Shown here: positions 1 through 24,149 of the stretch, piece after piece
Layout of the letters: the number at the start of each line of letters is the position of its first letter
Position numbering within the stretch: the first letter of the stretch is position 1
DNA from: a virus
Virus record (IMG/VR): IMGVR_UViG_3300025150_000006
Span: 1 to 64,000 of that record
Reading direction: 5' to 3' (one strand)
DNA length: 64,000 nt
Notes under the pieces: generated by a model
Database searches by the model: none
Seen by the model: only the letters and a program-made list of their open reading frames with translations
Told to the model about the DNA's origin: nothing
Made by a program: the position numbers and the translations under genes

Positions 1-1
1 G

Positions 2-112
2 GTCGCCAAGGTCAAAGGTGAGATCGTCACGGTCGAGTTCCCGGAACAAACCGTGCCCTGCCACCGAAGCAACCTGATTCTCTTCAATGAGAGACACCTA
101 GAACCTCGCTGA
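2..112 (+). CDS. 3' end of a hypothetical protein cut by the window edge
   Basis: Open frame VAKVKGEIVTVEFPEQTVPCHRSNL...EPR* with high-GC3 codons. Confidence 0.55.
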   Translation, partial: VAKVKGEIVTVEFPEQTVPCHRSNLILFNERHLEPR

Positions 113-133
113 TATAGTCGGCATCCCAAACCG

Positions 134-6206: not shown

Positions 6207-6766
6207 TGCACATCTCCGAGGTCGAACTGGTGATGAACCACCACCGTCAGTTTCCCATCGACGGTGAGGTTGATGGACTGGGCGTCGATGGACTCCATCC
6301 ACTGCTGGACGGCCCGCAGGTCGGCAGTGGTGCCGTTCGGGCCGTGGAGCGGGCTGATCACCAGATCTTCCGACTCCACGGGCTCCCTGTACATCTCCGG
6401 GGGCAGGGAGACCGGGATGATCTTGTCTGATGACTGCCCTTGCTCAGCCAACTTGGTCCGCACCGCTTGGAGGATGCTGTTGTCCACCCCGGAGCCATAC
6501 TTGGCTCGCAATGCCTTCTGGCACTGCATTCCGGTCTGTCCTAGACGGAGACAGGCTTCAATCAGCTTCATCTTCTCTTGAAGAGATCCGGGCCTCTTAC
6601 GGGGCTCTATACAGGTAGGCCCCTCCCCAAAGATAGTCTTGCGGAGTGCGGCCAAGGTCGCGGTTGAGACCGCAGAGCCGTACTCATCCCTAAGCGTCGC
6701 GAAGATCTGCTTGTTCGTCACACCCTGGCCAAGCAACTCAGTGACTCGTTCCATCTTTCCCAGCAT
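6203..6766 (-). CDS. Hypothetical protein with two HTH-like repeats
   Basis: Repeated unit ELLGQG..QIFATLRDEYGSAVS / CLRLG..CQKALRAKYGSGVD; GGAGG SD before ATG 6766. Confidence 0.65.
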   Translation of the reverse strand: MLGKMERVTELLGQGVTNKQIFATLRDEYGSAVSTATLAALRKTIFGEGPTCIEPRKRPGSLQEKMKLIEACLRLGQTGMQCQKALRAKYGSGVDNSILQAVRTKLAEQGQSSDKIIPVSLPPEMYREPVESEDLVISPLHGPNGTTADLRAVQQWMESIDAQSINLTVDGKLTVVVHHQFDLGDVQ

Positions 6767-6787
6767 AGGGAACCTCCGGTTGCCCCC

Positions 6788-6819
6788 CTTACTCGGAGGA
6801 AGCCAGGAGAGTACCCCCC
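6788..6819 (-). promoter_or_regulatory. Promoter-like motif, class III (GGGGGGTAC-N14-CCGAGTAAG)
   Basis: Second copy of the CCGAGTAAG element, upstream of a gene. Confidence 0.55.
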
Positions 6820-6846
6820 GAAAACCGGGATGTGTCAACTGAAAGC

Positions 6847-7119
6847 CTAGTCCTGCCTGATATTGGGTCGTTTCCCGGTCAGCAGCCATCGCATCAGGTG
6901 GTACTCACAGGGGACGTAACCCTGCTGGTCGTTCATGGCGAAAGCACGACGCGGGGCCGGGAACAGGAACGTGCAACGAACCCAAGGTCGGAGGAAGGGA
7001 TGTCCCAGGAACCATCCGACCTTGGGCCGCTCCCAGTCGATACCGAAGCGGATGCCACAACAGGTAGGGATGTCGTGCTTTCGTCCTTCTTCGGCCCAGT
7101 CGAGAACCCGACGGATCAG
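6847..7119 (-). CDS. Small Cys-containing hypothetical protein, start uncertain
   Basis: IPTCC...GYVPCEYH motif; no nearby canonical start. Confidence 0.4.
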   Translation of the reverse strand: MIRRVLDWAEEGRKHDIPTCCGIRFGIDWERPKVGWFLGHPFLRPWVRCTFLFPAPRRAFAMNDQQGYVPCEYHLMRWLLTGKRPNIRQD

Positions 7120-7328
7120 GTGAGGCCGAGGGCCTCCATCATCGGGATCGGAGCCGTGAGACCGAGCATCTCCCGCATCGTCCTCGGCTGGCGAGCTTTC
7201 TCCCACTTCTCCTCCAGGTACTCGGGGTCGTTCGCCATCAGACGCTTGTGGGTGAAAGCCGCAAGGCTCCCCACCACCATCGTGTGGACATCTTCGATCG
7301 CTACTGTGATGAACTGCTTCTGTGCCAT
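7116..7328 (-). CDS. Small hypothetical protein (MAQKQFIT...)
   Basis: GGAGG SD plus ATG; GC3-rich. Confidence 0.6.
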   Translation of the reverse strand: MAQKQFITVAIEDVHTMVVGSLAAFTHKRLMANDPEYLEEKWEKARQPRTMREMLGLTAPIPMMEALGLT

Positions 7329-7378
7329 GATGGACCTCCATCCCCTAATATACCCGAGTTTGCAGGAAAAACACAAAA

Positions 7379-7410
7379 GGGGCTCAACTCTGACCCCTCA
7401 CCCGTAGTAG
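7379..7410 (+). promoter_or_regulatory. Class I promoter-like motif
   Basis: GGGGCTCAA-N14-CCGTAGTAG. Confidence 0.8.
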
Positions 7411-7415
7411 GGTCA

Positions 7416-7860
7416 GAAGACAGAAGGTGCTCGGTAGCTGCCGAGCTAGTGAGGATGGCTCCTCATGAACAAGCGGAGTAGCGTTCGCACAACGGTAGGA
7501 AATCAACAGGCCACCCGTTAGGTAGCTGCTCAGTGGAGGACTTACCTGAGAAGCCCAGGGCTTCAGCCGGAGCCTTTGACGGGGGACAAAGTAAGGGGTG
7601 TCAGGTGGAGTCGATCGGGCTTCATCCCAGACTGTGAAGCCGGGCATCCTATCCCCCACCCATTGCTCTCTTTGGAGTCTCAACTGGGCGCTAGTGTTAA
7701 AGGCAACCGTCCACAAGGGCCGTGACTAAGCTCTAGGATAGAGTGCCCCACCCAACCGGAAGAGGTCTAGTCAACCAGAAGCCGGAAGGAGAAAACGCCC
7801 CCCTCACCCGGGGAAGTTCCAGGTGGAAGTCCTGGGCGTCCAGTTGAGCCCCCAAAGGGA
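7416..7860 (+). ncRNA. Putative structured ncRNA (~445 nt)
   Basis: No credible ORF; follows a class I motif; many hairpins plus long-range stem 7667-7691/7836-7860 whose G-U pairs work only on +. Confidence 0.55.
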
Positions 7861-7866
7861 CCCTTG

Positions 7867-8847
7867 CTACGAGAGCAATGAGGACAGCGAATGGGCATGG
7901 GAGAGCACCTCCGTAATGAGGGTACTCCCACCAATCACCGTTCCAAGAAAAACCAGGAAGTTTCTCGGGCTCAAGATGCCCTTACCAACTGCTGGGCCGA
8001 AGGCGCTGCGGATGCCGATGCCGTAGCGAGGCTGCTGCAAACCCCGGATGAATTTGACCGTCCGAGCTTTGGCTTCAGCCGCCTTGTCGAACTGACCCTC
8101 TGCATTGGACTTCAGCGACTCGTACTTGCTCGACTTGTCGATGCTCAGGCTCACGCCCCCAATCGAGTAGTCGAACTCCTCGTGGACCCAGTTGATGGCG
8201 AGAGCCATCAAGGCGTGGCTCATCGCCGCATAGTTGACGGCCATCGACCAGTCGGAGTTGCCTCTCAGCAAGCAGTTCAGATCACTGATGCCCGTGCGAG
8301 GTGGCATCATGTTCCACCAGCGCAACGCTTGATCCAGATAGACTTTCAACTCTTCATCGGTCCAGACGTAGCCGAAGATGCGGTTGTACTGCCCGATGTC
8401 ACACTCGTGCTCAGGTGGCCGGAAGTGGTAGTTCCGGTCTGGCGAATTATGTGAACAAATACAAGAGGTTGTGAGGATCAGGTTGTGGTTCCCTTCAACC
8501 GTCAGATCAAACATAAACTGACGGTCATCAATTTGAAGGACTGAAATCAAAGGGGTAACACGAACCTCACCCTCCCAAACCACAAGTACAGAGTCTCCGG
8601 GAACTAACGTTTCCGCATCCACAGCAAGATCAGGATTTGGGCTTCGGTATACTCGGTGCCCACCCGTAAAAACGGAAGAACCGAACTTTGTGGTTAGTTC
8701 CCAAATGGATTCCGGTCGAACATCCGCCCGGTGAACAGCCTGTACCTGCCGCCATTCCAATACACCCCCAGAAGATACGGACTGCACACGCAGTTCCCCT
8801 GCCCGGAATGCCTGACGCAATTGGTCTCGTTGAGCACTAGTGATCAT
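7867..8847 (-). CDS. Split-intein C-part (134 aa) fused to C-extein of a putative neck/head-completion protein
   Basis: Intein block B FTGGHRV, block F MFDLTVEGNHNL, block G CSHN|S; the extein resembles head-tail adaptor proteins (YSIGGVSLSID). Confidence 0.85.
   Translation of the reverse strand: MITSAQRDQLRQAFRAGELRVQSVSSGGVLEWRQVQAVHRADVRPESIWELTTKFGSSVFTGGHRVYRSPNPDLAVDAETLVPGDSVLVVWEGEVRVTPLISVLQIDDRQFMFDLTVEGNHNLILTTSCICSHNSPDRNYHFRPPEHECDIGQYNRIFGYVWTDEELKVYLDQALRWWNMMPPRTGISDLNCLLRGNSDWSMAVNYAAMSHALMALAINWVHEEFDYSIGGVSLSIDKSSKYESLKSNAEGQFDKAAEAKARTVKFIRGLQQPRYGIGIRSAFGPAVGKGILSPRNFLVFLGTVIGGSTLITEVLSHAHSLSSLLS
8446..8847 (-). mobile_element. IntC of an atypically split intein
   Basis: Begins with Met, no block A, ends HN followed by Ser+1. 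Confidence 0.85.
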
Positions 8848-9596
8848 AGCCCAAGATCCTCCTCAGTCCACACACAAAAGTGCCAGCCCCGTTGTTTAGC
8901 CTGATCTGCTGCAACCTTAAGACGTGTGATCTGCTTGTTGTTATTGCCGTAAGTGGGGTGATCCAGTACCCATTGTGGCTTGACTTCAATCAATTTCACC
9001 ACATTGTGGCTTAGAGTCACAACGAAGTCAGGGTAAATGCGTGCACCATCTTTCAAGACTAGTGGTGGCTCATACTGGTATGAAACCACAGAGGGGTCTG
9101 CATCTAGGAGGACCAAGGCCTGACGCTCATAGGTACTCCTAACCCGAAATTTCCCCTTCCGGTTGGAGCACTTCAGGGCAACTACCTCACACCAAATCCC
9201 TCGACCCCCACACTTCCCAAACTTGGATTTAGGGCTCTCTAAGAGAGAGTAAAATTTTCCACTTGCCCAATCCTCTCGAAGGCGTTTAGACAACCATGGC
9301 TTCTTTTCACCCGCTCTGGAGCGCCCCATCCGAGCTGCACTTTCCTGACGATTTTTCCGAGAAGCATCATTCCACATGGCCCCAGTGAGTCGCTGGATGG
9401 ATCCATTGGAAAGCCCTGTAATCTCGATCATCTCAGCCCAGGTACAACCAGATTCATGCAAGGTCGTCACGATAGCCGCCCGCTTATCCCTGACACCCAA
9501 TGGGGGTCGCCCCCTCTTTGAGAATGTATCCCAGTCGAGTTCCTGTGCCTTTAACAAGGGTGCCAATCGTGGGTGTGGTGTGCTCATGCCTAGCAA
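8844..9596 (-). CDS. Free-standing endonuclease: HTH plus TnsA-like PD-(D/E)xK domain
   Basis: RSTYE...YQYEP...YPDFVV...LIEVKP; lower GC; lies between the intein halves. Confidence 0.8.
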   Translation of the reverse strand: MLGMSTPHPRLAPLLKAQELDWDTFSKRGRPPLGVRDKRAAIVTTLHESGCTWAEMIEITGLSNGSIQRLTGAMWNDASRKNRQESAARMGRSRAGEKKPWLSKRLREDWASGKFYSLLESPKSKFGKCGGRGIWCEVVALKCSNRKGKFRVRSTYERQALVLLDADPSVVSYQYEPPLVLKDGARIYPDFVVTLSHNVVKLIEVKPQWVLDHPTYGNNNKQITRLKVAADQAKQRGWHFCVWTEEDLGL

Positions 9597-21591: not shown

Positions 21592-21625
21592 AAAAAGGGC
21601 CGGTTCCCCGTGAGGAACCGGCCCT
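21592..21625 (-). terminator. Rho-independent terminator
   Basis: AGGGCCGGTTCC/GGAACCGGCCCT stem plus TTTTT on -. Confidence 0.8.
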
Positions 21626-22143
21626 GAGTGTTGACGGCCAGTGGGGGCGGGCCAACACCCTGAAACGACGAAACCCACCGTTTTCCGAGGAAAAGACGGT
21701 GGGTTCGTGTTCTGGCTTGGGCGACTTTGGTGTTTGAAGACCACTCTCGCCGGTTGCCCCCATCCTCCCGAAGGAGGTCACCGTTGCCGTGTAGCTCTCG
21801 CTAGGTTGGCTTTGGTGAGATGGGTCGTGATGAAGGTGATGGACCCTTCGTCCCCATCGCGGGTTTGGGCAGTATATTTCAACTGTCCTGGGATTGGGTA
21901 GTAGGCCCCTCTCCCATGACGCTTACCGCTAAGCGTCCCATCGTTGAGGCTGATTGCGAGTCAACCCCTACTGCCGTTTCCCAGTGACCAAGAGCTACTT
22001 GATATGGTTGAAACGGAGGCTCCGCCAGGTTTCCCCTTTGGAACGAGTTCAGGTGGCTGCCTGAACCTTCCGAGCGAGACAGTGTATAGGGGCCTCCCCT
22101 GTACCTGGTTCCCTTCGGGCCGAAGGCGTCTCCGCCAGCGACG
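21592..22143 (-). ncRNA. Putative large structured ncRNA (~550 nt)
   Basis: Bounded by a sigma70-like promoter and a terminator; GNRA/UUCG-capped hairpins and a T-loop-like UGAAA hairpin on -. Confidence 0.7.
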
Positions 22144-23391: not shown

Positions 23392-23423
23392 GGGGCTCAA
23401 GTCAAACCACAGGTCCGTAGTAG
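23392..23423 (+). promoter_or_regulatory. Class I promoter-like motif, divergent partner
   Basis: Exact motif. Confidence 0.8.
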
Positions 23424-23500
23424 GGGTGTCGATGGAAACACCCCCACACAGGAGACCCTATGATGCGCTAACCCAATCCCCCATTATGAAACTTGTAGAG

Positions 23501-23531
23501 AAAGCCGTCGGGTTGCGCCCCGGCGGCTTTT
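23501..23531 (+). terminator. Rho-independent terminator
   Basis: AAAGCCGTCGGG/CCCGGCGGCTTT stem then a short T run. Confidence 0.7.
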
Positions 23532-23540
23532 CCCGTTTCG

Positions 23541-23611: not shown

Positions 23612-24100
23612 ATGAACGTTTCCGCACTTCTCAACGCCATCATCGCCCGTGCCAATGCCCTGGAGCATCTGGCCACGGAACAGCGCAACGAAGCCGAACA
23701 GCTCCGCAACCTCATCTTCGGTGCCCCCGAAGTCGAGGCGGAGCCCGACGCCGAACCGGAGCCCGCACCGGTTCCTGCCGAGGCCCCGAAGCCGAGGCCC
23801 CAGCCGGCCGCCGTCCTCCCGAAGGCCCCGTTCATCCCCAAGCAGCCCCCGCTCCAGGAGATCAAGGACCTGGCCGCTGAGGTCGGCGTGGACGTGAGTG
23901 ACCTGTTCCCGGCCGGCGGAACGAAGCCCACCAAGGCGACCAAGTCGGCCGCCATGGCCCGCATCTTCAAGGCGAAGAAGGACGCGGCCGAGATGGCGAG
24001 GCTGGTCGAGCAGGATGAGGCGGACAAGGCTGCCCTCCTCAACTCGGACATCGGCACGGACGAGGAAGAGGACATCGACCTGGGCGACCTGGGCGACTGA
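23612..24100 (+). CDS. Hypothetical protein (Pro/Ala-rich, acidic tail)
   Basis: AGGAG SD and very strong GC3 bias. Confidence 0.75.
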   Translation: MNVSALLNAIIARANALEHLATEQRNEAEQLRNLIFGAPEVEAEPDAEPEPAPVPAEAPKPRPQPAAVLPKAPFIPKQPPLQEIKDLAAEVGVDVSDLFPAGGTKPTKATKSAAMARIFKAKKDAAEMARLVEQDEADKAALLNSDIGTDEEEDIDLGDLGD

Positions 24101-24149
24101 CCCAAGCACGGGTCACCAGGGCTCAAAGCTCCTGGTGACCCGTAGGGCT

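Follow-up and report, generated by a model that had tools for sequence, protein, structure and literature searches.

The interval of interest lies in the window, by which is meant the whole 64-kb stretch of DNA that was analysed, and which makes up the first 64 kb of a 105,230-bp IMG/VR virus record (G000). The start of that record is identical over 127 nt to the end of a 169,413-bp record, G002 (window 1-127 = G002:169287-169413), so the two records adjoin each other in the genome of a single jumbo phage, which spans at least 274 kb. Its GC content is about 60%, and CheckV rates the G000 and G002 pieces as 24% and 32% of a genome, respectively. Two more IMG/VR records from other samples, G001 and G003, are contained within G002 at 99.99-100% identity. 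Nearly all long ORFs of the window run on the minus strand, and 2 of the genes there, gene X and a gene of 70/71 aa, enclose a gap of several hundred nucleotides in which the following features are found or predicted.

7116-7328, minus strand: 70/71-aa gene, with RBS GGAGG at 7339-7335, a positive codon-usage score, and homologues in the relatives L036 and L006
7340-7376, minus strand: upstream region of the 71-aa gene, TATATTAGGGGAT followed by GGAGG, conserved with L036
7380-7410, plus strand: bipartite promoter-like motif, GGGCTCAA (7380-7387), a 14-nt spacer, and CCGTAGTAG (7402-7410)
7389-7417, unstranded: 8-bp inverted repeat TCTGACCC / GGGTCAGA, with the -10 box in the hairpin loop
7417-7866, plus strand: ORF-free body, a putative non-coding transcript antisense to the minus-strand operon
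7661-7691, unstranded: left arm of an imperfect inverted repeat, with a degenerate -35-like box GGAGTCTCAACT
7789-7816, minus strand: weak terminator-like hairpin and short T run, about 50 nt after the stop of X
7836-7880, unstranded: right arm of the inverted repeat, with a perfect inverted -35 box AGTTGAGCCCC at 7842-7852 and 10 nt in the last codons of X
7866-7912, minus strand: remnant of gene Z (a DUF7487 gene in relatives), with RBS GGAGG at 7912-7908, ATG at 7898-7896, and 11 codons, MPIRCPHCSRS
7867-8847, minus strand: gene X, an intein C-part fused to a conserved virion C-extein

The intein-splicing match of X is weak, and its virion C-extein is well conserved. X ends in a C-terminal extension of 28 aa (7870-7957, minus strand) past the ...PRNFL end that is typical of most relatives, and this extension is common to the relatives L006 and L066, which carry gene Z. 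The 70/71-aa gene is the actual downstream neighbour of the gap, and an identical copy of its 70-aa protein is encoded on 22 public contigs. An ORF of 164 aa at 6847-7341 on the minus strand is probably a mis-call that merges frames, rather than a single gene. This ORF differs in frame from the RBS-led start at 7328, and within the ORF only 6850-7116 is conserved in relatives (L003, L006 and L047, at 66-79% aa identity). There is also a second short motif, TATATTAGGGGAT / CATAATGGGGGAT, found on the minus strand at 7340-7352 and 23476-23488 and at both sites back-to-back with plus-strand copies of the promoter motif described below. The TATATTAGGGGAT-type motif upstream of the 71-aa gene is conserved in L036 as well, and it may be another promoter class.

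The stretch 7342-7866 is non-coding. A codon-usage log-odds score, with 74 long ORFs as its training set, comes out below zero in each of the six frames over 7300-7860, compared with +0.15 to +0.5 for real genes, and the GC codon-position pattern (GC3) of the genome is seen in no frame of the stretch. Stop-codon recoding was rejected as a candidate explanation: TAA, TAG, and TGA are mixed in each frame, so that no single reassignment opens an ORF. The longest ORF of the stretch, 110 aa on the minus strand at 7384-7716, was searched against 1.84 billion representative proteins and matched only itself and a tandem-repeat artefact (P0002), and a near-open plus-strand frame at 7465-7722, interrupted by one TAG, has no homologue. 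A sequence-only reading had described the stretch as ORF-free, and on codon usage, GC3, stops, and homology searches it is. A conserved short protein, set beforehand as the finding that would refute an RNA here, was looked for with a negative result.

The same reading had a class I phage promoter pointing into the stretch on the plus strand and converging on the end of the split-intein gene, and both points hold, with a complete motif copy at 7380-7410 facing the end of X. This copy fits every conserved position, including a weaker downstream consensus ggtCAGAAg, and the predicted transcription start lies near 7417. The exact form GGGCTCAA-N14-CCGTAGTA(G) is present in 5 copies in the window, where 0.00 would be expected. 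Allowing one mismatch per box, GGGCTCAA-N14-CCGTAGTAG is found 41 times on both strands of the 274 kb (G000+G002), with a spacer of 14 nt in 41/41. Most of these copies are 20-45 nt upstream of an SD and ATG, and there are five back-to-back divergent pairs among them. Example sites in the window are 447, 7380, 23371 (minus strand), 23393, and 23542, and a T-rich tract often abuts the first box. The related records G004 and G005, at about 72-81% nucleotide identity, have the same motif. The genes behind the motif are non-structural, including an ADP-ribosylglycohydrolase, an RNA ligase, and a metallophosphoesterase, which suggests an early/middle promoter class. By its architecture, the 7380 motif is a genuine promoter-like element of the phage's repeated class. 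As to what might read it, no sigma-70-type RNA polymerase or sigma gene was found in the 274 kb, and a search for a T7-type polymerase gene had no match there and matched no control genome either. The AAC...CGT cores of the motif presumably recall ECF-sigma promoters, though with shorter spacing.

The hairpin at 7389-7417 has its 5' arm in the promoter spacer, so an RNA started near 7417 would be without it. Over all 41 copies, the longest stem averages 4.10 bp against 3.76 +/- 0.14, a mild enrichment; about 5 of the 41 have a strong hairpin, and there is no general hairpin around the -10 box. Where such hairpins do occur, as at G002:10012 (plus strand), G002:166801 (minus strand), and window 7389-7417, they are perfect over 12, 10-15, and 8 bp, respectively, with the -10 box in the loop, and are built from the promoter spacer and the first transcribed bases in an arrangement like that of the promoter-early stem-loop (PeSL) cassettes taken up below. 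A hairpin at 24117-24147 (plus strand), after the plus-strand gene 23612-24100, has a degenerate promoter-like GGGCTCAA-N12-CCCGTAGGG in its loop and 3' arm. The promoter copy at 23393-23535 (plus strand) is followed by an SD and the 3-codon frame ATG-ATG-CGC-TAA, and then by an intrinsic terminator of canonical form, GCCGTCGGG...CCCGGCGGC TTTT, behind which the next promoter copy follows at once. The unit is about 100 nt long and has no real gene, so near-empty cassettes occur in this genome.

What relatives have at the same place was asked with the X protein, which retrieved a syntenic set of 55 loci, 16 viral and 39 from metagenomes. Synteny is conserved on both sides, and the interval after X varies from relative to relative. 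L036 and L003 have a gene Y of 131-161 aa on the same strand as X; L047 and L062 have two small genes; L006, L041, and L043 have a DUF7487 protein of 370-440 aa, which is gene Z, also carried by L066; and L005, with the X closest to that of the window at 80%, has a reverse-oriented gene of 270 aa. The 161-aa ORF in the slot after X in L003 (L003:4628-5113, plus strand) has a downstream in-frame GTG that gives a twin-arginine-type signal, RRDFILTSAATLVAAAAVPATG, an unusual cargo for a virion module.

In the window, the RBS and first 11 codons of Z overlap the 28-aa extension of X, and this overlapping-gene arrangement is kept though Z is gone. Homology to the relatives ends directly after the X stop, at 7866/7867, and the sequence beyond 7866 aligns with Z no better than shuffles do (p 0.6-0.8). 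The idea of a decayed Y, Z, or L005 270-aa gene was rejected after tblastn, tblastx, and Smith-Waterman alignment with shuffles were non-significant beyond those 11 codons. The left breakpoint is at about 7376, up to which L036 shares TAYATTAGGGGAT...GGAGG, and is 3 nt from the promoter motif; the right breakpoint, 7866, is 14 nt from the inverted -35 box. Between the breakpoints, blastn and nhmmer find no similarity to the gap in the 55 syntenic loci, and there is none in INPHARED or in five records that share the promoter motif (G001-G005). Exact 18-19-mers of the gap in IMG/VR turned up only one chance palindrome, and a search for a paralogue elsewhere in the phage turned up only the promoter motif. 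Across the 55 loci, the five records, INPHARED, and IMG/VR exact words, in searches that left out records very close to the window, no homologue of the stretch was found, and hence no compensatory base changes. Having breakpoints at about 7376 and 7866 and no homologue of the gap, 7377-7866 (the left end being approximate) is a lineage-specific replacement, which left X and the promoter region of the following gene intact while Z and its neighbours were lost.

The main point of interest is then whether the DNA that came in encodes a structured RNA, since the sequence-only reading had put forward an ncRNA candidate of about 445 nt and had listed its complementary pairs. Every one of those pairs is present. 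Perfect hairpins are found at 7429-7446, 7450-7465, 7550-7564, and 7618-7641, and the count of those of at least 6 bp is 4 against 1.9 +/- 1.4 per 482-nt genome window, with 15% of windows having 4 or more. The fold of 7379-7860 on the plus strand has z = -2.14, a value that comes from the -35 box at 7379-7389 pairing with its inverted copy at 7842-7852, the pair GGGGCTCAACT / AGTTGAGCCCC closing the minimum-energy fold of the 482-nt interval. On the scale of a genome background made from 234 windows of 450 nt, with energy regressed on base composition, this interval ranks on the plus strand at the 7th-8th percentile if the -35 box is included and has z +0.12 if it is not, and an RNA started downstream of its own promoter does not contain the -35 box. 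For the transcript alone, 7417-7866 on the plus strand, z is -1.06, a stability equalled or bettered by 20 of 100 shuffles; measured against the genome background, the plus strand of this interval is at z -0.45 (30th percentile) and its minus strand at z -0.16. Plus-strand sliding windows of 120 nt are all above z -1.7, and notable values are confined to minus-strand windows at 7340-7480 (z -2.0 to -2.7), which cover the promoter hairpin and two perfect hairpins.

Rfam 15 at gathering thresholds has 0 matches in the whole window, and for 7200-8000 with E up to 10 there was only noise, the best at 17 bits against cut-offs of 60-85. ARAGORN found nothing. A group I or group II intron joining X to the next gene was rejected, there being no intron model match, and the flanks being two distinct genes, in relatives as well as here, with a stop, an RBS, and a start of their own. 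No plus-strand terminator-like site was found in 6500-9000, that is, none within 1.5 kb of the promoter, and the 3' end of the putative 7417-7866 transcript is therefore undefined. A specially structured RNA in the stretch is not supported. What holds of the ncRNA candidate is an ORF-free stretch behind a real promoter, and what does not is its structured-RNA part, the covariance models naming no known family and the transcript folding in an ordinary way.

The one uncommon structural feature of the stretch is the long-range inverted repeat, with 25 nt at 7667-7691 / 7836-7860 that are 84% complementary, extendable past a 13-nt bulge by a perfect 10-nt pair at 7661-7670 / 7871-7880. Inverted repeats of at least 20 nt within 500 nt number 6 in the 64 kb, and one of these is a divergent promoter pair. 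The 25-nt repeat closes a domain of 207 nt, for which z is -2.0 on the plus and -1.0 on the minus strand. The long-range helix had been given a plus orientation fixed by its wobbles; the helix is present, but the wobbles come to two G-U positions that favour plus only weakly, and with two such positions in a single sequence the orientation cannot be fixed. Both arms contain -35-like boxes that are closer to each other than to any other promoter copy. The repeat can be explained as a local inverted duplication made in a rearrangement no less well than as a helix under selection.

We think it somewhat better than an even bet, with a probability of about 0.55, that 7377-7866 (approximately) is lineage-specific non-coding filler, namely a promoter cassette, orphan or emptied, where X meets the 71-aa gene, a hypervariable junction. 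It is the repeated promoter without a gene, together with promoter-derived boxes at both breakpoints, that points to such a cassette. The ancestor would have held the DUF7487 gene Z and further small genes at this junction, as L006, L041, L043, and L066 still do, and in this phage everything past the X stop would have been replaced, the RBS and 11 codons of Z probably remaining on account of their overlap with the 3' end of X. The replacement would have brought in one intact early/middle-type promoter facing X and two inverted -35-like boxes. If it fires, the promoter would give rise to a non-coding RNA, folded in an ordinary way and not under selection for its fold, which would extend antisense into the 3' end of X, and any effect would come through antisense pairing or transcriptional interference and not through a dedicated RNA fold. 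Phage genomes rarely retain 490 nt of useless DNA, which counts against calling this filler, as do the promoter copy being perfect and not decayed, and the 25-35-nt inverted repeat being rare in the genome and slightly favouring the plus strand.

How such a product may arise is suggested by the PeSL cassettes of T4-type phages, which are dozens of promoter and stem-loop repeats, the stem-loop often overlapping the -10 box, that mark the breakpoints of insertions, deletions, and replacements between related phages, with a few copies inside virion modules beside ORFans (Arbiol et al. 2010, PMC2839356). The motif here is likewise strong and repeated dozens of times, with a stem-loop over the -10 box in some copies, and promoter repeats are likewise at the replacement breakpoints, 3 nt away on the left and 14 nt on the right, where relatives carry different genes. 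The differences are that GGGCTCAA-N14-CCGTAGTAG is not sigma-70-like, that only about 5 of the 41 copies have a strong hairpin, and that the 7380 copy is without any gene behind it. Repeated promoter motifs serving as recombination points, as in PeSL cassettes, could yield a product like the one at this junction, and from the breakpoint positions we infer recombination at the motif.

Among the alternatives to an emptied cassette, the one that survives best is a functional cis-antisense RNA, in which an early or middle plus-strand RNA, by overlapping X, a late gene, at its 3' end or 3' UTR, lowers or times the expression of X or of the late operon by an RNase III duplex or by polymerase collision. 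The precedent is the lambda OOP RNA, a 77-nt RNA from pO that is convergent with and overlaps the 3' end of cII, and whose action is RNase III-dependent. As with OOP, a promoter without an ORF of its own converges on the 3' end of a protein gene, and that promoter is intact, of consensus quality, and of a class tied to non-structural genes, facing a virion gene. OOP is, however, short with a defined terminator, whereas here the promoter is 450 nt from the X stop, has no plus-strand terminator to define a short RNA, and is in an arrangement conserved in no relative, and an emptied cassette gives the same geometry trivially. A regulatory role of this kind is possible, but on balance we consider it unlikely.

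The minus strand may be where a function is to be sought, with the gap an intercistronic element, namely a 3' stabiliser, an RNase III-type processing site, or an attenuator, composed of the inverted repeat from the last X codons, the terminator at 7816-7789, and the hairpin and T-rich run at 7417-7355. Its role would be to keep the X mRNA apart from the 71-aa gene, upstream of which lies a conserved element belonging to that gene. In its favour, the genes on either side are both read from the minus strand, terminator-like sites are found on that strand, the inverted repeat reaches with its right arm into the end of X, and the only local windows of significant stability are those at 7340-7480 on the minus strand (z -2.6 to -2.7). 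The fold of the inverted-repeat domain on that strand is nevertheless unremarkable (z -1.0), the terminators are weak, and relatives manage without such a spacer, all of which makes an element of this type improbable.

An RNA of about 445 nt with a fold-dependent function, in the manner of GOLLD and ROOL, is a little more improbable again. Like those RNAs, the stretch is ORF-free, several hundred nucleotides long, and in a phage genome, in this case behind a real promoter, and one can add the z of -2.14 for the 482-nt fold and a long-range helix of 20-30 bp that closes the 207-nt domain at z -2.0 on the plus strand. GOLLD, ROOL, and similar families are defined by conserved, covarying structure. 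The stretch differs from them in having no match in Rfam even with E raised to 10, no excess folding stability in the transcript once the untranscribed -35 box is taken away (z -1.06, 30th percentile), ordinary local windows and hairpin counts, and no homologue in any database searched, hence no covariation. By contrast, another ncRNA candidate at 21601-22050 on the minus strand has the most extreme fold of any 450-nt window in the genome, with a composition-corrected z of -3.8 and neighbouring offsets at -2.8 to -3.5, and it deserves effort far more than the 7377-7866 stretch does.

These elements might also be combined into a working device, and we are quite doubtful of that. One form would be an early/middle antisense RNA of about 450 nt whose 3' domain, 7661-7880 with its 30-bp imperfect helix, acts on the end of the split-intein virion gene by clamping or mimicking the end of X. 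The other form would be a flipping promoter cassette with -35-box inverted repeats at its ends, by which early transcription switches between silencing X and driving the downstream 71-aa operon.

An invertible or mobile promoter cassette in its own right is highly improbable. It would be bounded by the 11-bp repeat GGGGCTCAACT (7379-7389) / AGTTGAGCCCC (7842-7852), and a flip would redirect the promoter from antisense to X to sense into the 71-aa gene. The attraction is that a perfect 11-bp repeat, which is the -35 box, is 3 to 14 nt from both homology breakpoints, so that, as in fimS and Hin/Gin/Cin-type invertons, short inverted repeats bracket a few-hundred-bp segment with a promoter. Unlike in those systems, the repeat is merely the -35 box, there is no second orientation observed, and no serine or tyrosine recombinase (PF00239, PF00589) was found in the 274 kb of G000+G002, an incomplete genome. 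There is no other copy of the segment, and a scan for flipped junctions found nothing, as did its control for unflipped junctions.

A small protein, either an 87/110-aa product of the minus-strand ORF at 7384-7716 or one from the plus-strand frame at 7465-7722 read through its TAG, has next to no probability and was already largely refuted above, as the 87-aa ORF being called by the source's own gene caller on one contig, and a GAGGA 8 nt before the ATG of the plus-strand frame, are set against codon-usage scores of -0.24 and -0.44 and a random-like composition rich in Leu, Arg, Ser, and Pro.

As an RNA gene, then, 7377-7866 fails, and it is not to be carried forward as a new large phage ncRNA. 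The promoter consensus, from 41 copies with fixed spacing, is useful for mapping transcription in this phage group. The junction itself is a clean example of a repeated motif, non-sigma-70 and predicted to be a promoter, placed exactly at a gene-replacement breakpoint without a gene, in an uncultivated jumbo phage larger than 274 kb. It supports the view that promoter repeats may drive cassette turnover well beyond the T4-type phages.
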